Part shown: piece by piece, positions 859 to 47,965 of the stretch
How positions within the stretch are numbered: position 1 is the first letter of the stretch
How the letters are laid out: every line of letters begins with the position of its first letter
Notes under the pieces: generated by a model
The model's database searches: none
What the model saw: the letters and a program-made list of their open reading frames with translations, nothing else
Told to the model about the DNA's origin: nothing
Virus record (IMG/VR): IMGVR_UViG_3300032322_001011
Location: 20,696 to 84,695 of that record
Source: a virus
Length of the DNA stretch: 64,000 nucleotides
Direction: 5' to 3' (one strand)
Program-made: the position numbers and the translations under genes

Positions 859-2295
859 TCAAGCCTCATCCGAAAGATCAAGGATGTCTGCGTACATACT
901 GTCAGCCTGGTTAGCATTCAAACCACCACCTGTAAGTTGCCTGGTGGCTTCGCCTACTTGAGCGCCAAAGATACGACTAAGTACCCCTGCACCGCCACGT
1001 GCTTCAACCTCAAGACGCATGACATCACGAGTATCTGAAATGTCTTTGAACTTCTCAACTAAAGCGAACAACCGCTCAACCTCATCGGACAATGCTGGGT
1101 CAAGACCTTGACCTTCCAGTTCTTCGGCAAAGCGAGCGAACAACACTCGGCTCATTTGCATCTCCAATAATGCCCTCATCGCAGCCTGTAACTGATCTTT
1201 AGTTTTGATCTCTACGGGCAACTTGAATCCACAATCAGAATTCTCCTTGAATGCAGGACAACGGCTGGACAAATAACAATGATTGCACTGCCTCAAAAGG
1301 TTACTTTGATACTGCAAAACAGGTGTTGAAAAAGCCTCAGAATTGCCCTCATCCTCAAGTTCTGTAAGGTTTTCAGCAATTTGTGGTGTGATGTTCTGGA
1401 TACCGATAACTGGTAACAATACTTTTTCGTCTTCGTGCCGCTTGTCAGCACCCCTAATCATAATACTTGTACCCCCAGAAGCCACATTTTGGACATTACC
1501 AATATTTTGCAAATCATTAGGATTTGTACTATTTTCCGATAGACCTATTTCTTGTTCGTCATCGTCATTTGCAGGGTCATAGACCCCAAAAGCACCCTGC
1601 TCCCACGCTTGCCAAGACTTGATTGCCAACTTTGCAACCTCAGCATTATCGTCTTGGACTATCTGTTCATAGTCAATTCCTAACCGAATAATGTCGGCTC
1701 GGTGCTTCTTTCGGGCAGAATCTTTCTGCTGTGCTGGGTATCGGCGTAGACCGTGACCATCCCATACCTGAGTTTCCCCGTAACGCACAGCCGATGTCCA
1801 CGACCCCACGACTACTGAATCCCAAGGTAGTGATTCAATGACATCTGGTTTAGATGACAACCCCACTAACTTGGCATCCCACCTCTGAATGAGGTTACGA
1901 ATACGGGAAATGTTTTTACCGTTTACAGCCTTATCGCTGACTGCGGCCCTGCCATGACGTTGGCATAAATACGCCAAACGCTCTAAATCGTCACCATCAT
2001 TCCATAAAGGAATATACCGTTCGTTTAGCCATGCCCCATCATAATCAGGGCGACCAATGACCATTGCAATGTTTTCGTAGTGCTGACGTAGGAAATCATC
2101 GTAACGAGTGACATCTTCGTCACTTTCTGAAGTATACAAAACGACCTCACCGCCATTGCACATTACAGATAAATCTAGTTCTTTTTTCTTAGGCACAGCC
2201 AAATGGGTGAGGTTTATGGCGTATCTGGTTACCCCAGAAGCGGACAGCAAAGATCGGTGAGAGGACTTTTCGGCATTAGCAAAATAGATTTTCAC
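859..2295 (-). CDS. Degenerate tRNA-guanine transglycosylase (TGT/DpdA)-like barrel fused to a Cys4 domain and helical C-terminus
   Basis: MKIYFA start; YIPLWNDG, KLVGLS and PWDSVVVGSW...RYG recall phage TGT-like motifs; C-terminal CNHCYLSSRCPAFKENSDC. Confidence 0.5.
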   Translation of the reverse strand: MKIYFANAEKSSHRSLLSASGVTRYAINLTHLAVPKKKELDLSVMCNGGEVVLYTSESDEDVTRYDDFLRQHYENIAMVIGRPDYDGAWLNERYIPLWNDGDDLERLAYLCQRHGRAAVSDKAVNGKNISRIRNLIQRWDAKLVGLSSKPDVIESLPWDSVVVGSWTSAVRYGETQVWDGHGLRRYPAQQKDSARKKHRADIIRLGIDYEQIVQDDNAEVAKLAIKSWQAWEQGAFGVYDPANDDDEQEIGLSENSTNPNDLQNIGNVQNVASGGTSIMIRGADKRHEDEKVLLPVIGIQNITPQIAENLTELEDEGNSEAFSTPVLQYQSNLLRQCNHCYLSSRCPAFKENSDCGFKLPVEIKTKDQLQAAMRALLEMQMSRVLFARFAEELEGQGLDPALSDEVERLFALVEKFKDISDTRDVMRLEVEARGGAGVLSRIFGAQVGEATRQLTGGGLNANQADSMYADILDLSDEA

Positions 2296-2774
2296 TCGTC
2301 ACCTCCATTAGTGCGGTACAACGACTGTACTTCAAGTTCACGAGTCAGGTCTGTCCAGACCTTTCTTTCCCTAGGCTTATCATTTCGCCATTCTGGGCGT
2401 ACAAAGTTGGGCAAGCACATCAAAAGACAAGGAATAGCATCCTGCATCACCAAAGTCACAGTTTCAGGATTGGTGTCTACAAACCAGTCAATTTTTCCGT
2501 ATACGGCGTTCAAATCTCGTACACGGTCACGCACATCTGAAGGTTTTCCAGACTTGGCTACCTCAACAGTGGCAAATTTATAACCTTCACGTTTTGCCCA
2601 CTCTGTCAAAATCTCAGCGCCAACATCAGTACCCAAAATAATAAGCCTGCCGTTGTACCGTGCAAATAGCGCTTCGTACAGTTTTTGACCATCGGGAATA
2701 GGTTGTCTTGCACCAGGGGAGAACGCTTTGTCAGTATTTGCATACGCTAATACATCAAAAGTAACAACAAGCAT
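2292..2774 (-). CDS. HAD-fold-like protein (degenerate)
   Basis: N-terminal VVTFDVLA, IIILGT and WFVDTNP resemble HAD motifs I, II and IV. Confidence 0.45.
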   Translation of the reverse strand: MLVVTFDVLAYANTDKAFSPGARQPIPDGQKLYEALFARYNGRLIILGTDVGAEILTEWAKREGYKFATVEVAKSGKPSDVRDRVRDLNAVYGKIDWFVDTNPETVTLVMQDAIPCLLMCLPNFVRPEWRNDKPRERKVWTDLTRELEVQSLYRTNGGDE

Positions 2775-3232
2775 CAGTCGTACATGCCCATCGCTTTACG
2801 TTCTTTGGTTGCTACGTAACCTGAACCTACTGGGCAGAAATGGCATAGATATTGCCATTGTTCTTTTGGAACACCAGTCTTGCGACCAATCGTCTTAGAT
2901 TCATCTTCCCAGTCAATACAACTACCTTTAGGAGCACCGTGGCGTTGGAAGCATTTGAGGGCTTCTACTTTGAGGTCATCACGAACTTCACGAACCTCAA
3001 TCTCATTCTTCATCAATTCTTTTTTGATCCCTGTCTCACCGTCAAGGGCATCATATGTTGCTTGGTCACAACGGAAGATTTGAGACAAGTGTGCTTCAGG
3101 GGAAGGGTTTTGAGCACGAGCAAGATGCATCTTGATAATTTCTTGCAACTCCATGTCATTATCTGCGTTACCGTCATAATCACGCATTTTGTGCATTGTT
3201 CCACAAGAATTGCAAACTAGAAGTCTTGGCAT
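2774..3232 (-). CDS. Hypothetical Cys/His zinc-binding protein
   Basis: CNSC, CFQRH...C and CHFC motifs. Confidence 0.7.
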   Translation of the reverse strand: MPRLLVCNSCGTMHKMRDYDGNADNDMELQEIIKMHLARAQNPSPEAHLSQIFRCDQATYDALDGETGIKKELMKNEIEVREVRDDLKVEALKCFQRHGAPKGSCIDWEDESKTIGRKTGVPKEQWQYLCHFCPVGSGYVATKERKAMGMYD

Positions 3233-3256
3233 GTTGTACTACTTTCTATGAACTTG

Positions 3257-3691
3257 TTATTTAGTTGATGCTTTTAGTTGCCAACTCCACTTTGCATGCA
3301 TATCGATCCGATCAGCAAGGAAGTTGGCAATTCCTTGTTGATCTTCTTTTACTGCCAAATCAAATGCTACCTTGACTGACTTGGCAACTTCATCGTTGAT
3401 ACGCAGTAACTCTTTAGCCATTGCTTTAGGGTCTGGCTTTACTTCCTTGGATTCTACCGTACGGCTGTCCAAGAAGGTTTTGAGGCTAAACGGGGCGTAA
3501 ACATCCAACTTGCGAAGGTTTTCAGCAAGAGGATCAATGCTCCCATAAACATCGCTGTAAATCTCTTCAAACAAAGCGTGATACTGGCTAAAGTCTGAAC
3601 CTTCTACGTTCCAGTGGTATCCGTGCGCTACGAAGTACTCCGTAACTACATCGGACATCAATGTTTTGAGAGAATCAGCAAGTTTAGCCAT
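3257..3691 (-). CDS. dps: Dps family DNA-protection/ferritin-like protein
   Basis: HGYHWNVEG..F..YHALFEEIY...IDPLAENLRKL and HAKWSWQL Dps signature; start MAKLAD overlaps the upstream stop. Confidence 0.93.
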   Translation of the reverse strand: MAKLADSLKTLMSDVVTEYFVAHGYHWNVEGSDFSQYHALFEEIYSDVYGSIDPLAENLRKLDVYAPFSLKTFLDSRTVESKEVKPDPKAMAKELLRINDEVAKSVKVAFDLAVKEDQQGIANFLADRIDMHAKWSWQLKASTK

Positions 3692-4800: not shown

Positions 4801-5001
4801 TTATAGGCTAATTACTGGCTCAGTTGCCTCAGCAAGTGGGCTACGAGGGGTAACCCCGTATTGAGGTTGGAGAACCATATTGCGCTTGGTTACATACTCC
4901 ATCTCAACAGCACCACCACGGCCTGGGGTAAGCGATTTATATGTTCCATCCATGATTCCTTTACGGAGATCATCGTTGGCAGAGCGTTCCATGTTTTGCA
5001 T
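4801..5001 (-). CDS. Hypothetical protein
   Basis: 66 aa ORF, AGGA upstream. Confidence 0.6.
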   Translation of the reverse strand: MQNMERSANDDLRKGIMDGTYKSLTPGRGGAVEMEYVTKRNMVLQPQYGVTPRSPLAEATEPVISL

Positions 5002-5015
5002 AAAGATCCTTTTAC

Positions 5016-5897
5016 TCAGTAGATATTAATTCTATCAAAATCAGCACCTTGTGCTGAAGCACCACCAGATTGTGCGTTTCCACCACGCATTCCACCAATT
5101 GAAATAAATGGGTTGCCTGGAGAACCAGAAGTACCTGTTGAAGCACCACCATTTTTGGGGGCGTAAATTTGTGGAGCGTTGTTTACGTTTGCGCTGGTGT
5201 TTGTATTGGTGGCAGCAGGTGGTTGCATCGCAGGCGTAGATTGTGCAGCAGTTTTAGGTTGACGTGGTTGACGAACCCTACCACCAGCAACACCTTGCGT
5301 TTGAATACGCTGTTGTTGATCTGGGGTTCCATTCTTTGAAATGTCCGTAGCAAGAGCACGGCGAGCACGAGCAGTAGCGTTTCTACGATCCCTTTGCTCT
5401 TGGGTTAACTGTGGGCGTTGCCTGGGAGTTTGTCCTGCTGGATTTTGCCCTACTGGTTGCTGACCTGTTGGTTGTTGAAATTGAACTCCAGCAGATCCTC
5501 CACCAAAATCACCACGCCCAAGGTTTTCTTGGCTACCAAAAGTTGCTCGTTGGTCAAGGTTGAACGTATATGTAGTTGTTGGGCTTTGTGGACCTTGCTG
5601 TTGCTGTTGCTGTTGCTGTTGTTTTCTTCCACGACCCCAGAAACCACGACCACCACTACGACCAGCACGATAGTTGTAAAAGTTATTTCGGTTTGCAGGA
5701 TTCATCATCCATGCGTTCATACCTTGTGCAAGCATGCTGTCTTGTTGTGGTGGGCCAGAAGTTGCACCCCAATTACGTTGCATAGAACCAGCACCAGCGT
5801 TGTATGGTTGTGGGGCTGCAAAGTTTCCACCTTGAATCTGCCCAGTTGGGGCAGACATATTCTGTTGAGGGACACCACCGAAAGGGTTATTAGCCAT
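5016..5897 (-). CDS. Low-complexity G/Q/N/P-rich, probably disordered protein with RGG and poly-Q
   Basis: RAGRSGGRGFWGRGRK followed by Q9; few hydrophobic residues. Confidence 0.75.
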   Translation of the reverse strand: MANNPFGGVPQQNMSAPTGQIQGGNFAAPQPYNAGAGSMQRNWGATSGPPQQDSMLAQGMNAWMMNPANRNNFYNYRAGRSGGRGFWGRGRKQQQQQQQQQGPQSPTTTYTFNLDQRATFGSQENLGRGDFGGGSAGVQFQQPTGQQPVGQNPAGQTPRQRPQLTQEQRDRRNATARARRALATDISKNGTPDQQQRIQTQGVAGGRVRQPRQPKTAAQSTPAMQPPAATNTNTSANVNNAPQIYAPKNGGASTGTSGSPGNPFISIGGMRGGNAQSGGASAQGADFDRINIY

Positions 5898-5903
5898 GTC
5901 TAA

Positions 5904-6227
5904 TTATACCCAAAGACTTTGCATTGAGTATCGCCCAGAACCACTGAACTTATCATCGTTCATTTGTGCTCTCTGGAACATCACAGGAGCACCTGAAACC
6001 CATGAACGGTATTGGGGTGTCCAACGATCCACTGACAAAATGTCCACAATCCCAAGTTCCTGCTTTAAAAACCCACGTGATTGTGGAAATGCTTGCTGTG
6101 GGACAACAGGGCGAGTAGCACGAATAGTTTCTGGGTCAGAAATAGCAGACTGCAAAGCAATATCGGTAAGCAACTCTTCACGAGACTGCCACGGGCGTGT
6201 GCTTCTGTGGTTATCTACAGTAGGCAT
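5904..6227 (-). CDS. Hypothetical protein
   Basis: 107 aa ORF coupled to the upstream stop (TAATG). Confidence 0.7.
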   Translation of the reverse strand: MPTVDNHRSTRPWQSREELLTDIALQSAISDPETIRATRPVVPQQAFPQSRGFLKQELGIVDILSVDRWTPQYRSWVSGAPVMFQRAQMNDDKFSGSGRYSMQSLWV

Positions 6228-6493
6228 TAGTGCTCTGGTGGGTAAAAGTTAGGGTCATAACTTGACCAATTTTCAGGTGCTTCAGGATGGTATTGTTCAT
6301 CATTTGATTTAGCAACACCATCGTTGCCGTAAGCATCCAAATACGCTTCAAACTCTTCATCATTTTGCGTATGTTTTCTAGCCTGACGTTCACGAGATTC
6401 CATTTGCATTTCTTTTATTTCGTTATGCATGTCCATAGCATCACGCCCAACTTGGCGACCCATGTGATGACGAGTGTCTTGTCCTCTAGGCAT
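6227..6493 (-). CDS. MPRG-leader family protein 1
   Basis: MPRGQDTRHHMGRQVG leader, acidic body; TAATG-coupled. Confidence 0.8.
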   Translation of the reverse strand: MPRGQDTRHHMGRQVGRDAMDMHNEIKEMQMESRERQARKHTQNDEEFEAYLDAYGNDGVAKSNDEQYHPEAPENWSSYDPNFYPPEH

Positions 6494-6801
6494 TATTTGA
6501 TTGGCTTTCCTCTAAATGATGGGTTATTGTTTTCATCCCATGAGAATAGCGGTTTCTTTTCAACTCTTCCAGTACCACCCTTGGCTTTATCAATCAAGTT
6601 GCGAGGAGCAATGTCAGACAGACGGGCTTCTTGACCTGTGTACTCAGGTGTGTTTGGATCATCCAAGTCAGGGTTTCCTGGAGGCCCAATCAATGCATCT
6701 TTAATGCGTGACATCATTGAAGGCTTTGCCTTTTTAGCACGATGTGCATCAAGACTTACGATGCGAGCACCGTGGTGTCGGGTGTCTTCACCTCTAGGCA
6801 T
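6493..6801 (-). CDS. MPRG-leader family protein 2
   Basis: MPRGEDTRHHGARIVS leader; TAATG-coupled. Confidence 0.8.
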   Translation of the reverse strand: MPRGEDTRHHGARIVSLDAHRAKKAKPSMMSRIKDALIGPPGNPDLDDPNTPEYTGQEARLSDIAPRNLIDKAKGGTGRVEKKPLFSWDENNNPSFRGKPIK

Positions 6802-7007
6802 TATTGATACCTACTTTCTGGTCCAAGCACTTTACCGACAAAAGAACGCTGAACAGAAGGTTCATCTAGTTCAGAAACATGTTCAGCAATATCTGCTGGG
6901 TTGATACTTCCCCACACTGCTGTTTGCTGTTGGATAATACGATCAAGAATGGCTTCTTTGTCAACCCTACGTTTCTCGTGATTACGAGTATCTTCACCTC
7001 TAGGCAT
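6801..7007 (-). CDS. MPRG-leader family protein 3
   Basis: MPRGEDTRNHEKRRVD leader; AAGGA RBS. Confidence 0.8.
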   Translation of the reverse strand: MPRGEDTRNHEKRRVDKEAILDRIIQQQTAVWGSINPADIAEHVSELDEPSVQRSFVGKVLGPESRYQ

Positions 7008-7018
7008 AAACTATTCCT

Positions 7019-7297
7019 TTATTGTGGTGTGTTTGACCACGTGTTTGTAATTGGGTCAATTAGGATGTTCCCAGTACCTTTTCGGCGTGGTGCTCCCTTA
7101 ACATCACCAGGATGCCCAATTTCACCTTCTGGTATTTGGTATGACGGGTGGTCACCGCTACCAGGACTTGTAAATTTGTCAGAACCTGATGTCTGGCGAT
7201 CAATAAAAGTAGGAAGTCTTTCTGAAGACCTCGCAGCAAACCCTGAACGGTCAACCCTGCGGTTAGGGTGGTTATTTGTGTTTTCTCCTCTAGGCAT
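7019..7297 (-). CDS. MPRG-leader family protein 4
   Basis: MPRGENTNNHPNRRVD leader; TAATG-coupled to the 764 aa gene. Confidence 0.8.
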   Translation of the reverse strand: MPRGENTNNHPNRRVDRSGFAARSSERLPTFIDRQTSGSDKFTSPGSGDHPSYQIPEGEIGHPGDVKGAPRRKGTGNILIDPITNTWSNTPQ

Positions 7298-9591
7298 TAT
7301 GGCTTCTTTCTACGTGGGTTTTTTGGTTCAGAAGCAGGTGCTGGTGCTGGTGCAGAAGCAGGTGCTGTATTGTTTGTTGTTGGGCGACCTGCACTCTGTG
7401 CATTTTTTGCACGTGGGTGTGAAGGCTGACCAGAACTTGCAGGGCCACCCGTTGAAAGAACGGTTGCTCCCCTGTTTGTTGATGTTGCACGACCAGCAGT
7501 GCTCGCCACTGTTGGGGTAGTGTTAACAGTTCCACCAGTGATGTTTCCAAATGTGGATTCACCAATTACTTGTGGGGCAAAGTTTATGTTTGCGCTGTTA
7601 TTAACATTGATTCCACCGCCGTTGCCACCACCAAAATCACCACGACCAAGGTTTGTTTGATCACCAAAAGTAACTGGTCCTGAAATGTTATAGAACGAAC
7701 CAGAACGACTTGATGGAGCAGACGGAGCAGGCGCTGAAGAACTTGGACCTGCTGGTGCTGGCATTGCACTTGGTTTTCCACCACCTGATACCGATGGGGG
7801 TGTCATTGGTGTATTAGTTGCAGGAGTTGGTGTACCTCCAGCACGACCACCTTTTCCACCACCAAAGAACGTACGCATACGACCACCTAAACCTGGTTTT
7901 GAGGGTGAAGCAGGTGATGCAGGAGTTGGTTCTGTTTCCGAACCCCAATCATAGAAGTTCCCATCAGCAGGGCGTGGAGCACTCTCCGAAGTCCGCATTG
8001 TTCCGCCTTCACGAGCAGTACGAATTTGGCGAATACGCTCTGCGTTTGCCTTAGCCTCTGACGCAGTTCCGTAAACAGGTTCACTCGTTCCGCTCTTGTC
8101 AGTGTTAAGAATGAACTTACTGCCACCGCCAGTTGATGCTTTTGGAGTAGCACGTTCTGCTTCATCAGCATCAGAGCCAAAGCGAATTACACCGACCTCA
8201 TCTCCGTAGGCATCAGCATCCAGTGCTGCTTCTTCTTTATCCCTAACAGCAGCCATTCCTGCTTCGCTCATTGCTTTTTCTTCTGGTGTCATTGAGTCAA
8301 GAAGTGCGCCGTACTTTTCTCGGTAATAACCTGGCTTGTTTTTGTCAGGTGCAGCAGTCTCAGCAGCAGTTTCTGCCGCAGTTGGCTTACTAACATTTGG
8401 AAAGTTGCGCTTCTTTTTAGTTTCGGCAGGTGCTTCCATTGCAGCATCTATCTCAGCCTGCTTCTGTGCAGTTTTTTCTGGGTCGTTAATATCTGCCATG
8501 TACTGTTCTATTGCGGTCTTCTTTGGTTCTTCTGGTGGTCGTGGCTTCTCACGTTGGGCAGAACGCCCTGTAGCAAGTTCTTCTTCAACTGCCTCTGGTG
8601 AACCCACGGCAGGAGCGGAAGGCTTCTTTTTACCCTTACCTTTTGCTTTTGGAGCAGGAGCATCTGCTTCACCATCAGCCACTTCTCTAGTCCCACGGAA
8701 GTCAGGATGTGCTTCAATTTCTGCTTGAAGTTTTTCTCTAGCCTTACCAGTTGCTCTGCGAGTGTTTGATTTACGTGCTTTATCAAGCGCTGCTGCGGCT
8801 TCTGCTTCAGTTCCAGTAATGCCAGGCATTCGGCCTGCGGCAAAATCCTTTTCACTTTGTGAAGGAATGTATTCTGATTCGTTTTTCTTTTTCTTAGCCA
8901 CAGGCTTCTCCGATGCTGAAGGTAATGCAGGTTCTTCTACTTTACCAGTTTTATTAGAAGTATTGAGAAGTGAATCTCTAGAATTCTCGTATGTTTCTTT
9001 TACCTTTAGTCTGTTTGCTTCTCTTTTTTTAGTTTCTTCTGCACCAGCCTTTGTAGGTTTGTGTTCATACAATGGTGTAGTTGGTGGGGGAGTAGGAAAT
9101 CCAGTGCGATAAGAATTAACAGCATTTCCTATCCAGTCTGGGATTTCTCCACCTCTATGATCGTTTTGACCATATAGTTCATGGCCTGGTCCTTCACGAG
9201 TATCGTGTATGTCTAGTCCGTAACTGTAATAGTCATCAGGCCATTGATCAGGATTAACAGGGGTTGTTCGGTGTCCGTGTTCATTGACATTGTATTTTAT
9301 GAAGTTACCTTCTTCATCAATTGGACCTGGACCAACACTACCAAGTGTTCCCCATTGGTACGGTGTTACCATTCCTTTTTCTAAAAGATCGGCTCGTCTG
9401 TCCCATTTTGTTTTAAGCATGTCTTCTTCACCATGCCCTTTTGATTTCCAATATTCATCATGTGATGCACCAGACCTACGATGACGCATACCTAAGAGTT
9501 TGTTAACTTCTGGTACGGGCATAAGGTCTGAAGGATCAACATCAAACCGTGTAAGGTTCGCTAATGGGTTATCTTGTTTTTTCTTAACCAT
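7297..9591 (-). CDS. Large, probably disordered protein (K/E/A/P-rich middle, G/S/P/T-rich C-terminus)
   Basis: 764 aa ORF of low complexity, no recognisable domain. Confidence 0.8.
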   Translation of the reverse strand: MVKKKQDNPLANLTRFDVDPSDLMPVPEVNKLLGMRHRRSGASHDEYWKSKGHGEEDMLKTKWDRRADLLEKGMVTPYQWGTLGSVGPGPIDEEGNFIKYNVNEHGHRTTPVNPDQWPDDYYSYGLDIHDTREGPGHELYGQNDHRGGEIPDWIGNAVNSYRTGFPTPPPTTPLYEHKPTKAGAEETKKREANRLKVKETYENSRDSLLNTSNKTGKVEEPALPSASEKPVAKKKKNESEYIPSQSEKDFAAGRMPGITGTEAEAAAALDKARKSNTRRATGKAREKLQAEIEAHPDFRGTREVADGEADAPAPKAKGKGKKKPSAPAVGSPEAVEEELATGRSAQREKPRPPEEPKKTAIEQYMADINDPEKTAQKQAEIDAAMEAPAETKKKRNFPNVSKPTAAETAAETAAPDKNKPGYYREKYGALLDSMTPEEKAMSEAGMAAVRDKEEAALDADAYGDEVGVIRFGSDADEAERATPKASTGGGSKFILNTDKSGTSEPVYGTASEAKANAERIRQIRTAREGGTMRTSESAPRPADGNFYDWGSETEPTPASPASPSKPGLGGRMRTFFGGGKGGRAGGTPTPATNTPMTPPSVSGGGKPSAMPAPAGPSSSAPAPSAPSSRSGSFYNISGPVTFGDQTNLGRGDFGGGNGGGINVNNSANINFAPQVIGESTFGNITGGTVNTTPTVASTAGRATSTNRGATVLSTGGPASSGQPSHPRAKNAQSAGRPTTNNTAPASAPAPAPASEPKNPRRKKP

Positions 9592-9599
9592 ATACAGCC

Positions 9600-10214
9600 T
9601 TAGTCAAATAAAGATGGTTGTTGAAATACAGGAAATTGTTGAGCAGAAATATGAGTTTTAGCGTTTGCTACAGAGTTATCACTTATGGATTTTGTTACTG
9701 GTCCATATTTTTTAGATCCTTCAAGTTCTTCTTTTGGCTTTAACAAATCACCTGCTGGTTCATACGTTCCAGGAGATGTTTCTTTAAAGTTCCATTCACC
9801 ATTCCCACGCATTCCCCACCAACTACGCATACCGTGTGGTTTAAGTTGCTTTATGATTTCAGCACCTTTGCGCTCTGCCATACTTTCAAAATCTGAAAAA
9901 GGAACACCATTTTCTTTGTGCATCCTTGTTGCCATATCTTCTAAATGAAGTTGGTTTTCACGGTGAGTGCTGTATTTTTCCCAAAAGTCATCGTCTGAAC
10001 CATCACCAATAAATGCGCTATTTGATTTACTGACTGCTTCCATTGCATTTTTATACTCAGGATTAACTTTGCTAAATGCTTGATCCCGTAATTCAGTTGC
10101 CAACCATAGTTTGTGGCTTTTACCCCAAGAATCTTCTTGTTCTTGTGTTTTTGAAGGAGTCCAATATGCGGCTTCGCCAGTACCCTTTTTAGACCGTTTT
10201 TTCTTTTCAGCCAT
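9600..10214 (-). CDS. Hypothetical protein with basic N-terminus and HISAQQF...QPSLFD tail
   Basis: 204 aa ORF. Confidence 0.75.
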   Translation of the reverse strand: MAEKKKRSKKGTGEAAYWTPSKTQEQEDSWGKSHKLWLATELRDQAFSKVNPEYKNAMEAVSKSNSAFIGDGSDDDFWEKYSTHRENQLHLEDMATRMHKENGVPFSDFESMAERKGAEIIKQLKPHGMRSWWGMRGNGEWNFKETSPGTYEPAGDLLKPKEELEGSKKYGPVTKSISDNSVANAKTHISAQQFPVFQQPSLFD

Positions 10215-10217
10215 TAT

Positions 10218-10718
10218 TTATCTCCAAGAAGGGCGAAGCGATTGGAGTTTGGCACGGCGTTCAGCGTCAATATAGTCTTGATTAGGTTGGTCAATAACCC
10301 GTGGGATTCCTTTAGGACCAACTTTTCCGTCATTAGTCAATTGTACAGGCACTGCGCCTGGGGGTGCGAATTTCTGACCTCGTGACTCATGGGCGATCCC
10401 AGTCCAAAGATTGAACTCGTTAGGCCATAGGTAATCGCCTTGGTTAATACGCTCACCTTTGTGGACACCACGAGAATATTGACGGGCGTTATTGCGACTA
10501 AGCGTTCCAAGAATCTTGTCTTGTCGGCGGTTAGACGACATTGTTCCAAGGTATCCGTCTGGATACGTAGTATCTGAGATAGTCCGATAACCAGCAAGTT
10601 GATAATCCTTGTTGTTACGGAAAACAGGAGCAGGACCAAATTGGTTTTGGGTTGCACCACCAGAAGCCTCAGATGGGCCTTGCCAATGGTTAAACGAGGT
10701 CTGCGAAGACCCAGCCAT
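10218..10718 (-). CDS. Hypothetical phage protein
   Basis: 166 aa; YPDGYLGT and YSRGVHKGERI segments; TAATG-coupled. Confidence 0.75.
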   Translation of the reverse strand: MAGSSQTSFNHWQGPSEASGGATQNQFGPAPVFRNNKDYQLAGYRTISDTTYPDGYLGTMSSNRRQDKILGTLSRNNARQYSRGVHKGERINQGDYLWPNEFNLWTGIAHESRGQKFAPPGAVPVQLTNDGKVGPKGIPRVIDQPNQDYIDAERRAKLQSLRPSWR

Positions 10719-10930
10719 TAGTTGTACCAGCCGTTCCTGTACCTATTTTCACGAGACTCTTCATATGATTCTTGATACTCAAAAGGCTTTCTAGGTGGCT
10801 GCTCGTTATCGCCATACCCACCAGTCTTAGTTCCTGGTTTCTTAGGTGGAGTCGTACCACTACCACCAGTAGAAGTTTGTGGACCTACTTGGCGCTTAGG
10901 GTGATTGCGAGTATCTTGTCCTTTAGGCAT
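10718..10930 (-). CDS. MPRG-leader family protein 5
   Basis: MPKGQDTRNHPKRQVG leader; TAATG-coupled on both sides. Confidence 0.8.
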   Translation of the reverse strand: MPKGQDTRNHPKRQVGPQTSTGGSGTTPPKKPGTKTGGYGDNEQPPRKPFEYQESYEESRENRYRNGWYN

Positions 10931-11052
10931 TAAATTGTTCCGATGCTAGTAATGAACCCACCAGCCGCACCTGCCGCAGAGGTGATGGGGCGTGGGGCAT
11001 CCTTTTTAGGAGCAACTTTCTTTTTAGCAGCCTTTTTCTTCTTAGCAGCCAT
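10930..11052 (-). CDS. 40 aa Lys/Ala-rich histone-H1-like peptide (not in ORF track)
   Basis: MAAKKKKAAKKKVAPKKDAPRPITSAAGAAGGFITSIGTI; TAATG overlaps at both ends. Confidence 0.7.
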   Translation of the reverse strand: MAAKKKKAAKKKVAPKKDAPRPITSAAGAAGGFITSIGTI

Positions 11053-18029: not shown

Positions 18030-18710
18030 TTATTGAGCGTCAAGAATGTCTGTTGCTACTTCCAACAGTTCTGTGCGAGTAGGGATCTTGATGATGCTTG
18101 GATCGTAAGCATTGTTGTTCAACACCTTCATGGTGTCTTCATCAAATGCTTTGAGATTCCATTCTTCAAGGTCACGCTCACGTACCATCTGCAAAATGGT
18201 TTGTGTCTGTGCTCCCTTACCAGTCTTGGATACTGCCCAATAATTCTTGGACAGAGGTCCTTGACGTGGGTCAAGGTGGAAGTTCTTTAGTTGGTCAATC
18301 AGACGAACGCCAACTTCAAACGACTTAACAATTGCTTCTTCTTCATTGCTAAGGACTGCAATGTTGAATGCAAACTTCGTGCTTGGGCGATTGCCTGCAT
18401 CACAAAGTGGGCAACCATTTGGATCGTCATGCAAGCAGACAAAAGACTTCTGGCCTTGACGACCATCAATCCAGTGTGTGCGGAACGATGCGTATGGTTC
18501 GTCTTCCAAGAACTTGATGACTTGTGTGTCTTCAGTTACCTTGAAGCGCTGTGCGTACGGTGAGGATGCTTCCTGAACACGGTCTGCTGCACCCCAACCA
18601 CGCTTGATTGATCGTGCTGCTGGTGCTTCAGTTGCGTCTGTTTGCTTTGCTTTTACTGGCGATGCAATTTCTTGCTCGTCATCTTCATATTCGTCATAAC
18701 GGTTTGACAT
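18030..18710 (-). CDS. ssDNA-binding protein (gp32-like)
   Basis: IKFLEDEP..FRTHW...SFVCL...CPLC...VSKTGKG; adjacent to the polymerase. Confidence 0.75.
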   Translation of the reverse strand: MSNRYDEYEDDEQEIASPVKAKQTDATEAPAARSIKRGWGAADRVQEASSPYAQRFKVTEDTQVIKFLEDEPYASFRTHWIDGRQGQKSFVCLHDDPNGCPLCDAGNRPSTKFAFNIAVLSNEEEAIVKSFEVGVRLIDQLKNFHLDPRQGPLSKNYWAVSKTGKGAQTQTILQMVRERDLEEWNLKAFDEDTMKVLNNNAYDPSIIKIPTRTELLEVATDILDAQ

Positions 18711-18732
18711 GATGTACCTTGCTTTCGTGTGT

Positions 18733-19173
18733 TTAATTTGACCAGTGTGTATGTATGTGTTTTTTGAATGCTACCCAATCTACATTTTGTCCTCGTGCTT
18801 TATTGAGTCCAAAATGATCAACTGCGTATAGCAGTAACTCTACCTGACTTCGGCTGTAAAGCCTACGCCCCTTGGAACTTTTTCCAGGAATTTGATTCCC
18901 CTCTGGAGGAGAAGTCCGAAACTTTGGAACAGGAATAATTCCATCATGTTCCCAGTGTCGTAATGTATCTGGTTTTCTTCCAAGTGCTTTGGCAACCTCC
19001 CCAATTGTGTAGAAGGCCACCTTTTCCCCACGCACCTGGTAGTACGTTGCGTGAAGAAATTCAAAAGGATCTTCTTCCTTACTCTTTTTAGTTTCCGCCC
19101 TGTTTTTAGGCGGCTTCTTTCCAGGGTAGTTAGGAAGATCCTCAAGAAAACTATCTAAGCCTTGAGCGCCCAT
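18733..19173 (-). CDS. MerR-like HTH DNA-binding protein
   Basis: YTIGEVAKALGRKPDTLRHWEHDGIIP...RRLYS. Confidence 0.85.
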   Translation of the reverse strand: MGAQGLDSFLEDLPNYPGKKPPKNRAETKKSKEEDPFEFLHATYYQVRGEKVAFYTIGEVAKALGRKPDTLRHWEHDGIIPVPKFRTSPPEGNQIPGKSSKGRRLYSRSQVELLLYAVDHFGLNKARGQNVDWVAFKKHIHTHWSN

Positions 19174-19575: not shown

Positions 19576-21120
19576 TTATACCTCGCTGTTTGTTAAGAAC
19601 GAAGACAATGCGCCTAAGTTCAGTTGAAAGTTTCCTTTGTGGTCGTGACCACCATCAACAAATGCTTTGTTGATGTTCCTTTTCTCTTGCAACATTTCGT
19701 ATTGCCTCTCTTCAATACTCCCCTTCATTACGAATGAGATTATGTTAACGTGCGGAAACTCAGATGACAACCTGATAATTCTGGCTTCTCGTTGGTCTAG
19801 TTTTCCAGCGCTCCAAGGAAGGTCATAGGAAATCAAATAGTTAGCCACAGGTAAGTCCACACCGTAGCCACCAGCATCCGATGATAAGAACAAACGGGTG
19901 TTTGGATCGTTAGCAAACTGTTGTTTTGCTCTGTCTCTAGACATCATATCCATGCCACCCATAAACAAAACGCTGTTGGTTAGCCCTTTTGTAGCGTTTT
20001 GAATTAGTCGTAAATTGTTTTTAAAGAACGAAAACAATACAACTTTATTCTTTGGATCTTCATTTAAAACGTCTTCAATGTACTGAAGCACCGCATCTAA
20101 CTTGGGGGTGTTAAACCTCTCTGGAATAAGACCCTGTGCTACAACTTGAGAAGCATGCTTACTACCTTGATCGTTGTTGTCGTCTAGGTATTGCTCTGCG
20201 GATATCTTTACCAGTTCTGGATTATCACAGAACATACGTAGGGTAGTCAATCGGGACATGACATCCCCTTGTGCTTCCATGTTCTTATTGTTTCCGTAAT
20301 AGTGCGCCCACAAATCAAACCCTCTGCCATGTTGGGTTATTGCTTTTTGAATAGAATCAAGCAAGTCATTAGACAACTTCCTATACACAGCAGCACCTGC
20401 GGAATCAAATGGTACTGGAATGAAGTGGTTGATTACTTGGGGCAACTGATCCTGAATATCTTCACGAGTTTTGCGGACCATTACGTCTTGCATACTTTCA
20501 TTTAGAGCCTTAAGATTTCGATATCTGCTTGGCTTACCAAAATGATCACGCACAATAAAGGTGCGGTCAAACACTTCAAACTTCCCAAGTACTGCTGGGT
20601 CAACAAACTCCATAATAGAAAACAATTCTTCTGGGCGATTCTCAATAGGCTGACCAGTGAGCGCAAACCTGTAATGGTATTTCTTACCTATGCGTTTGAT
20701 AAGCCTAGAACGCTTGGCTCTTGGGGTCTTAATCATGGTTGCTTCGTCAACCACAATTGCATCAAACTTATGTTTTTCAAAATGAGCCAAGTCGTTAACT
20801 AATGATTCAGGGTTAACAACAACGTACTTTGCGCTGAGTGCGTTACGCCATTCTTTCTTTCTAGCGGCAGCAGAACCATCAATAACAACGACATCAGAAT
20901 CAGTAAACTTTTTAATTTCTCTAGCCCATTGATACTTCAATGCAGATGGGACTACCACAATTACTTTCTTTATCTCACCAGACTCAAACAACTTTTCTAG
21001 TGCAGCAATAGTAGTAACAGTTTTACCAGCACCCATCACTAGGGCTAACAACATTTGACCACGGTCAACCATGAGTTCGGTTGCCTCTTCTTGAAACGGA
21101 TAAAGTTTCCCTTTAAACAT
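19576..21120 (-). CDS. SNF2-family DEAD/H helicase
   Basis: MGAGKT, VVDEA, LTGQPIEN, SDAGGYGVDL, DQREARIIR. Confidence 0.93.
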   Translation of the reverse strand: MFKGKLYPFQEEATELMVDRGQMLLALVMGAGKTVTTIAALEKLFESGEIKKVIVVVPSALKYQWAREIKKFTDSDVVVIDGSAAARKKEWRNALSAKYVVVNPESLVNDLAHFEKHKFDAIVVDEATMIKTPRAKRSRLIKRIGKKYHYRFALTGQPIENRPEELFSIMEFVDPAVLGKFEVFDRTFIVRDHFGKPSRYRNLKALNESMQDVMVRKTREDIQDQLPQVINHFIPVPFDSAGAAVYRKLSNDLLDSIQKAITQHGRGFDLWAHYYGNNKNMEAQGDVMSRLTTLRMFCDNPELVKISAEQYLDDNNDQGSKHASQVVAQGLIPERFNTPKLDAVLQYIEDVLNEDPKNKVVLFSFFKNNLRLIQNATKGLTNSVLFMGGMDMMSRDRAKQQFANDPNTRLFLSSDAGGYGVDLPVANYLISYDLPWSAGKLDQREARIIRLSSEFPHVNIISFVMKGSIEERQYEMLQEKRNINKAFVDGGHDHKGNFQLNLGALSSFLTNSEV

Positions 21121-44470: not shown

Positions 44471-45250
44471 TTAAAAACGACCTTTAGGTCGTGAACTTAA
44501 AAGCCTGTCTCGCATTTTAACATACTGGTCCATTGTCATGTTTCGGATATCCTCCGCATTCAATGTTTGGTATTCCGTTTGAGTTTCCATTGGCCCAACA
44601 GATGGAGCCGTTACCGACACACCTTTAACACGACTCGGTTGAGTCGCTTGTTGGATACTCTCAATGATAGCAGCACTGCGCTGACGAAGGATTTCCACTG
44701 ATGCTTCAATCTCTTCTGGCGTGTTTCCTGCTACGAGATCAATCAGTTCTGGAATGATCTCATCTTGAGACTCGTGTACACGGCGCTGGCGGTAGGTTTC
44801 AACCTCACGCAACTGGCGCTCTTTATCTAGAAGGGCAGACTGCGCTTGGCGTTCTGCTTCAATCTGAGCAAAGCGACTCTGCCATTCTGCATCAACATTC
44901 TTAATCTTGACATTGAATTCATCCTCTGTTCGCTTGAGAAGTTCTTTAGCACTAAGTTCATCAAACTCACGTTGACGGCGGATTTCTTCTTCCTTACGGG
45001 CAATTTCCTGCGCCTCACGGATAGCCTTCTCACGGTCTTGGGCGAGTGAAGTTACTTGCTCTTCCATCGTCTTGTAGCGGTTTTCCGCTTCTTCAATACG
45101 CTTGTAGAGTTTGTCTTTCTCTTGCTTACGGATGTTTTCTACTTCGTCTTCAGTGAAGACTTTGCCCTTTGGGGCAACTATGTTTGCCTCCGCATGGAAG
45201 GCTTCTGTAGCCTCCACAGGGATGACAATTTCGTCATTACCTTTTGCCAT
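44471..45250 (-). CDS. Capsid scaffolding protein
   Basis: Long E/K/R coiled coil, IRKQEKDKLY, IIPELIDLV, IRNMTMDQY; between portal and MCP. Confidence 0.8.
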   Translation of the reverse strand: MAKGNDEIVIPVEATEAFHAEANIVAPKGKVFTEDEVENIRKQEKDKLYKRIEEAENRYKTMEEQVTSLAQDREKAIREAQEIARKEEEIRRQREFDELSAKELLKRTEDEFNVKIKNVDAEWQSRFAQIEAERQAQSALLDKERQLREVETYRQRRVHESQDEIIPELIDLVAGNTPEEIEASVEILRQRSAAIIESIQQATQPSRVKGVSVTAPSVGPMETQTEYQTLNAEDIRNMTMDQYVKMRDRLLSSRPKGRF

Positions 45251-47332: not shown

Positions 47333-47965
47333 TTATACAGGCTTACGGGTTTTGTTTTGTTCGTACTCCTGAATGTACGTGTGATACGGGGGTCCCGTAT
47401 GAGGATCAAACCTAGCACTAACGGCGAGAGCCTTCAGCGCATGGTTTTTAGCCTGTTGCACAGTTAGTTTCTTATTGTGCGTAAGTACATGCATAGCCCC
47501 TAATGCGTACTCTCCGCCAGACCCAATTACGTATAGCCCACTGGACTCAGAAGCCCAAGCGTAGTCACCGTCAACAATATAGATTGTGCCGTTAATGACT
47601 ACAAGTATTAACGACCCTTGTTCAGCAATGTGCTGTTTGTTTTCGTTGAGGTCTGGGATTGAGTAGCCTTGTGCATCAAAGCATTCTCTGAGTGACGGGA
47701 TAAACTTCGCCGTAAAGAACTGGTCAAGTTTCTTCCCTTTAAGGTTTGGTGGTGGTGTTGGCGGTTGGAACACATGATGGAGAATGTTGATGGCCCGTAC
47801 ATCTCCAGCAGCACCGAGTAAATATTTTCCATTAGTTGATACCTTGCTACTTCCCTCACGAAGAGTTCCTATTTGCGTAGCAATGCCCCCGTCAATAGAC
47901 GAGATACGAGAGTCCACGCAGACGACTGCGAACCCATCACCTTGTACAGCGACAATAGTAGTCAT
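47333..47965 (-). CDS. Ntn-hydrolase, HslV/proteasome beta-like peptidase
   Basis: M-TTIVAV N-terminal Thr, DSRIS, K, GAAGD, IGSGGEYALGAM, DPHTG. Confidence 0.85.
   Translation of the reverse strand: MTTIVAVQGDGFAVVCVDSRISSIDGGIATQIGTLREGSSKVSTNGKYLLGAAGDVRAINILHHVFQPPTPPPNLKGKKLDQFFTAKFIPSLRECFDAQGYSIPDLNENKQHIAEQGSLILVVINGTIYIVDGDYAWASESSGLYVIGSGGEYALGAMHVLTHNKKLTVQQAKNHALKALAVSARFDPHTGPPYHTYIQEYEQNKTRKPV

Follow-up and report, generated by a model that had tools for sequence, protein, structure and literature searches.

To our knowledge, phages offer very few known examples of portable address peptides, the classic one being the capsid-targeting sequence (CTS) of phage T4. The CTS is a short conserved N-terminal peptide carried by otherwise unrelated small internal proteins (IPI, IPII, IPIII and the products of the variable ip loci of T-even phages), and the T-even ip genes form a hyperplastic locus between conserved genes, encoding accessory and highly diverse cargos (PMC3012670). 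In this study, a stretch of viral DNA of 64,000 nt (positions 20,696–84,695 of the 84.7-kb IMG/VR record IMGVR_UViG_3300032322_001011; the whole stretch is called the window hereafter) was analyzed, in which five open reading frames (ORFs) on the minus strand, named A to E, begin with the same leader, MP[RK]G[EQ][DN]T..H..R.V. Comparison with related contigs establishes a family which, as judged from the sequences, is built as a constant N-terminal tag followed by a variable and probably disordered tail. The tag, a 17-mer, may well be a portable docking or address peptide, that is, a short linear motif (SLiM), for one common partner.

By analogy, the T4 CTS appears to be the closest known system. 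Like the CTS, the leader is a conserved N-terminal peptide, always starting at residue 1, on about 51 clusters of bodies (the sequences behind the leader), and like the ip loci, its genes form a hyperplastic locus, with 0–5 copies between a conserved gene for a 166-aa protein and the gene of a protein named F in phages related to Streptomyces Borockvirus. However, leader and CTS show no sequence relationship, and the leader family differs in having probable actinobacterial hosts and apparently disordered cargos of no more than 163 aa without a match to any known enzyme family. The T4 CTS is a precedent for such a design, and what is new is the motif, the host group and the apparent disorder of the cargos.

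Encapsulin cargo-loading peptides are also short portable tags that direct diverse cargos inside a shell of the HK97 fold. These tags, mostly hydrophobic and placed at the C-terminus, bring enzymes into a cellular shell; they would parallel a packaging role of the leader, but none of these features was seen in the leader family. Viral SLiMs that hijack hubs (e.g., clamp-binding peptides) resemble the leader in being sharply bounded peptides amid disordered, fast-changing sequence. However, the leader is found only at the extreme N-terminus and resembles no known hub motif.

Leader peptide and bodies

Four of the five leader genes lie in one array, namely A (88 aa, 6227–6493, leader codons 6443–6493), which has an acidic body, B (102 aa, 6493–6801, leader codons 6751–6801), C (68 aa, 6801–7007, leader codons 6957–7007) and D (92 aa, 7019–7297, leader codons 7247–7297), while E (70 aa, 10718–10930, leader codons 10880–10930) is separate from A–D, upstream of the gene for the 166-aa protein. 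The starts agree with those proposed in the earlier note on this DNA. A degenerate DNA pattern covering the first seven codons has five matches in the window, compared with 0.01 expected from shuffled sequences, and no match in the 84.7-kb genome beyond these five. A TAATG stop/start overlap is present at the starts of A, B, D and E and not at C, which bears out the claim of four overlaps among five starts. From residue 17 on, Smith–Waterman scores for all pairs of the five proteins are within the range of shuffled sequences (z from −0.9 to 1.1), so the bodies are indeed unrelated, as had been claimed.

The block shared by these proteins had been put at about 15 residues. The block itself stands, while its end has to be moved to residue 17, with residues 16–17 usually [GSD][RK]. 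The consensus of the family is M-[PA]-[RK]-G-[EQ]-D-T-x-[NH]-H-P-x-R-x-V-[GSD]-[RK]. The information content is 2–5 bits per position up to residue 17 (the invariance of some positions being overstated by the way of collection, see below) and <1 bit beyond, where there is a weak preference for [DE]-A-hydrophobic at residues 18–20.

Selection acts on the leader peptide and not on the leader DNA, as the earlier note had proposed. Among the five leaders, 37 of the 104 pairwise codon differences are synonymous, and nucleotide identity is 61–73%. In related genomes, the codon of Arg3 is AGA, AGG or CGA, and that of Arg13 is CGC, CGT or CGG. Moreover, the peptide is kept across phages of 42–66% GC and is found in contigs of 63–66% GC. 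It is these synonymous differences, codon switches and the persistence in high-GC contigs that place the constraint at the peptide level.

About 104 distinct leader proteins were obtained from the fetched contigs. All of their bodies are hydrophilic (negative hydropathy), with isoelectric points from 4 to 11, and they are probably disordered or unfolded. Conservation differs greatly among bodies. Orthologues of protein B are present in many relatives at 79–99% identity; those of protein A (in L007, L009, L010 and L016) are about 60% identical; protein E has longer orthologues (114–159 aa) with identity of about 36%; and bodies related to D are present in L105 and L152. CxxC pairs are confined to some of the bodies, several of which end with CxxC...CxxC. 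Thirteen of 134 proteins, compared with 0.04 in shuffled sequences, contain a second short motif, D..P..G[IMT].RP (e.g., L112 at 6197, L145 at 6750 and L039 at 296), and it is often followed by a zinc-ribbon-like CxxC...CxxC tail. Bodies are mosaic; for instance, a 163-aa protein combines the post-leader module of L015 with the module that directly follows the leader in L031. The earlier idea that cargos are shuffled at the shared 5′ end is therefore supported in part, since mosaic proteins match different family members, but the exchange points fall within bodies as well as at the leader.

Distribution and variants of the leader

Exact-pattern scans of IMG/VR identified 11 more contigs with the leader, often with 2–3 copies in each, and a scan of JGI metagenomes identified it in about 30 contigs, always immediately 3′ of a start codon. 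When 1.84 billion representative proteins were searched with a profile of the N-terminal 30 residues, 49 clusters matched at E < 1e-3, all of them proteins of 54–159 aa with the match at residues 1–30; the members that were checked are of metagenomic origin and have no functional name. A family of constant leaders and variable cargos in tandem arrays, as the earlier note had suggested from this genome, is thus supported and extends far beyond one genome. In 185,579 prokaryote genomes there was no in-frame N-terminal leader, and the five matches obtained were internal, out-of-frame or chance matches in high-GC frames. Similarly, no isolate carrying the leader was detected when 50,697 phage records were searched by tblastn. 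A match of phage BRock to the leader profile was spurious, being antisense within a RecA-like gene.

The five leader proteins belong to no Pfam, PHROG or PADLOC family (the best sub-threshold match was DUF7240, with 14 bits against a cut-off of 27), and no paper turned up in a full-text literature search for the motif strings. The motif thus appears undescribed, in agreement with the earlier note, and the family is real and widespread. The 17-residue tag is sharply defined and easily searchable, and it labels dozens of small proteins that would otherwise escape annotation, in an abundant group of environmental actinophages.

The leader was further surveyed in 80 IMG/VR loci picked through protein F alone, 51 of which carry 1–5 canonical leader genes. 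Many of the loci without a canonical leader carry variants, either a form longer by seven residues, MAGHRDDG..AEDKAHHP.RKV, or an NDES..NP.RRP form. In some lineages the same slot holds two small genes that share another N-terminus, MAFN[IL][PR][GS]I[LA]GRN or MGIKDTMRGG; such pairs between the 166-aa gene and F are found in L147 (5826–6711), L156 (5332–6778) and L160 and L166 (about 6350–6995). These pairs from other lineages suggest that the slot generally holds N-terminally tagged proteins.

The type of leader goes with the genome and not with the body. The bodies of B and C and a body with FPQM and a zinc ribbon each stand behind differing leader variants in different phages. The B body in L130 follows the variant leader MAKGNDESRNGARIV, the C body in L117 follows the longer variant leader MAGPRDDGTSPEDKAHHQGRKV, and the FPQM body is found behind three leader types. 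Conversely, rare variants (MAGG, DERHN) are common to the leader genes of one genome. For pairs of proteins with unrelated bodies, the identity of the leaders is 0.63 for members of one genome and 0.54 for members of different genomes, and none of 500 label permutations exceeded this difference. Such likeness within genomes is expected from a tag that co-evolves with one lineage-specific partner.

Candidate functions and rival explanations

If the 17-mer is a docking or address peptide, all members of the family would be brought to one common partner co-evolving with the phage lineage, with the individual activities carried by the variable tails. The tag groups about 50 orphan protein types as one functional class, whatever the partner, and predicts a single common interaction, in which lineage-specific variants should co-vary with the partner. 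The leading specific model, which we put forward tentatively by analogy with the T4 CTS, would have the proteins, possibly anti-defense cargo, loaded into the procapsid and ejected together with the DNA. Packaging is favored by the small unfolded cargos, by leader genes that adjoin the portal gene in two lineages, by the lineage-specific tag variants, and by flanking proteins that are non-globular yet highly conserved. In two high-GC contigs, leader genes are directly upstream of the genes for portal, scaffold and major capsid protein (MCP).

In its fullest form, held with slightly more reserve, the model would have the 17-mer address proteins for capsid loading and ejection in a large group of uncultured actinophages, as an independently evolved functional equivalent of the T4 CTS that delivers hypervariable small disordered anti-defense proteins together with DNA that is probably 7-deazaguanine-modified, the tag variant being matched to the head interior of each lineage. 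If the partner is the capsid, the proteins would be injected effectors, and the tag could serve as a handle both to find such effectors in metagenomes and to bring foreign proteins into actinophage capsids. Ranked next, and nearly as likely as procapsid loading, is the docking of middle-expressed takeover proteins on one host or phage hub in the cell.

Several observations weigh against reading the leader as an address peptide, and in particular as a capsid address. Some sequences were collected with patterns that fix G4, T7, H10, R13 and V15, so the invariance at these positions is overstated. Recent duplication or gene conversion could contribute to the likeness of leaders within genomes. 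No conserved cleavage motif was recognized after residue 17, and a search for an S78 prohead protease (PF04586) gave no match, with a control that worked. Borockviruses and BCD7 have the same head-gene lineage but no leader. Furthermore, the array in the window and in low-GC relatives is located downstream of replication and recombination genes, without large gaps and outside the head module, and this position in a replication-side operon fits middle expression better than late expression. The involvement of a particular protease, treated below, has also lost ground. A scan for promoters and terminators gave counts not above those in shuffled sequences, and no expression timing follows from it.

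The earlier note had linked the leader with an N-terminal nucleophile (Ntn) protease. The window encodes an HslV-family Ntn threonine peptidase (47333–47965, minus strand; starting MTTIVAV) two genes upstream of the portal gene, and because no S78 prohead protease was found, this peptidase could be the head protease of the lineage. A search for an S77 protease (T4 gp21-type, PF03420) also gave no match, but its control matched nowhere. Of 20 related IMG/VR genomes, 8 encode the HslV-like peptidase; BRock and BCD7 do not. Two complete relatives, G011 and G012, have leader genes without an HslV-like gene, which weakens the proposed link and rules out the peptidase as an obligatory partner or processing enzyme of the leader. 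The scaffold candidate (44471–45250, minus strand) has the N-terminus MAKGNDE, which was considered as a leader-like signal and rejected since it is not conserved in relatives; its resemblance to the NDE leader variant is probably due to chance.

Other explanations of a constant leader are less likely. The one with most weight among them, though still improbable, is that the family consists of fast-evolving paralogues of one small gene, in which only the N-terminal peptide is functional (e.g., as a target-plugging inhibitor) and the tails drift or get replaced. Copy numbers of 0–5 would suit such paralogues, as would the short and hydrophilic bodies, whose conservation is poor even between orthologues (proteins A and E) while the leader is kept. 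However, other bodies are well conserved, as in protein B, the FPQM...zinc-ribbon body recurs behind three leader types, and the mosaics of recurring modules together with the second short motif argue that selection acts on the tails too.

Much less probable is a leader of the type found in ribosomally synthesized and post-translationally modified peptides (RiPPs), in which a modifying enzyme or protease recognizes the constant leader and processes the variable cores. RiPP precursors such as the prochlorosins do share a constant N-terminal leader, a hypervariable remainder and tandem genes with the family described here, a layout resembling that of RiPP clusters with multiple precursors. The earlier note had offered such an enzyme-recognition leader as an option, which now appears unlikely: among the scanned neighbors of the leader genes, no Pfam or PHROG match to a modifying enzyme, a protease, a RiPP recognition element (RRE) domain or a transporter was detected, and the HslV-like peptidase and the leader do not strictly co-occur. 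The putative cores, at 40–140 aa, are far longer than those of RiPPs, and they are hydrophilic and heterogeneous, with no common pattern of Cys, Ser or Thr residues. About equally remote, and if anything more so, is the explanation that the conserved 5′ end is a nucleic-acid element (a translation-initiation enhancer, the target of a regulatory RNA or the boundary of a recombination cassette) with the peptide as a by-product. Codons 3–6 are purine-rich and Shine–Dalgarno-like (AGAGGAGAA), and four of the five starts are translationally coupled through TAATG. Against such an element, the leaders are only 61–73% identical as DNA, Arg3 switches across both codon families and Arg13 between codons, the peptide persists from 42% to 66% GC, and no Rfam family matches the region.

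Neighboring genes and source genome

All genes of this locus are on the minus strand. The 166-aa protein (10218–10718), which belongs to no known family, bounds the leader array on its upstream side in relatives; it was found in 26 loci, has 40 invariant positions in 34 sequences, and its homologue in Streptomyces phage BRock is gp48. Protein F (107 aa, 5904–6227) forms the downstream flank, and the TAATG at its start includes the stop codon of A. It was found in 38 loci at 58–96% identity, has 22 invariant positions and is matched by >438 metagenome clusters; BRock gp47 seems by eye to be a distant relative. Protein F was considered as a degenerate sixth leader protein and rejected, since its N-terminus is variable and does not match the profile. 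Both flanking proteins are strongly conserved and without a known family, and their AlphaFold2 models are of low confidence and largely non-globular (predicted local distance difference test, pLDDT, of 48 for the 166-aa protein and 58 for F). These models were too poor for a fold search, and sequence searches of PDB and the ESM Atlas for the flanking proteins returned nothing usable.

The genes of the 166-aa protein and F are core genes that are shared, at least in part, with Streptomyces Borockvirus. In low-GC relatives, the gene order is SpoVS, one or two small genes, the 166-aa gene, the leader array, F (102–107 aa), a variable Q/N-rich protein, a conserved 66-aa protein, two genes of no known function and a DpdA-like gene. 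In BRock, gp48 is directly followed by the F-like gp47, with the 66-aa-like gp45 further on and no leader genes. Because BRock has both flanks without the array, the array is an insertion hot spot between core genes.

In the window, the array D-C-B-A is set apart from E and the 166-aa gene by genes for a 764-aa low-complexity protein (7297–9591) and a 204-aa protein (9600–10214). The 204-aa protein, located between the 166-aa and 764-aa genes, belongs to no known family and was found only in the closest relative, L055. Directly upstream of E is a 40-aa Lys/Ala-rich ORF (10930–11052) that resembles a histone H1 tail and overlaps the start of E in TAATG. Downstream of F is a variable, Q/N/G-rich protein of 293 aa (5016–5897), in a slot that holds proteins of 222–632 aa in relatives. 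The 764-aa and 293-aa proteins both contain TFG.Q.NLGRGDFGGG (E = 6e-7) and N.SAN.N.APQ (E = 0.015); a resemblance of these low-complexity proteins to tape-measure proteins was not significant (E = 7.4). The block is closed by the conserved 66-aa protein (4801–5001), which is present in 18 loci and similar to BRock gp45.

The IMG/VR contig has an estimated completeness of 89%, a GC content of 44% and a single coding strand for all genes. It encodes a terminase, portal, MCP, sheath and baseplate proteins, and the phage is therefore a myovirus; its MCP and the MCP of Streptomyces Borockvirus phages share about 60% identity. The genome also has a replication module, a SpoVS homologue, a Dps-like ferritin and a DpdA-like transglycosylase, and the phage DNA is probably modified by the DpdA-like enzyme (7-deazaguanine). 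Despite the GC content of 44%, the host is most likely an actinobacterium, because two WhiB-family genes are located just upstream of the window (genome positions 18640–18837 and 20280–20474). In another region upstream of the window (genome positions 2065–3348), several small ORFs share a different start motif that ends in QF, e.g., MAAHEGINWDQF and MEDKKSLSSQF.

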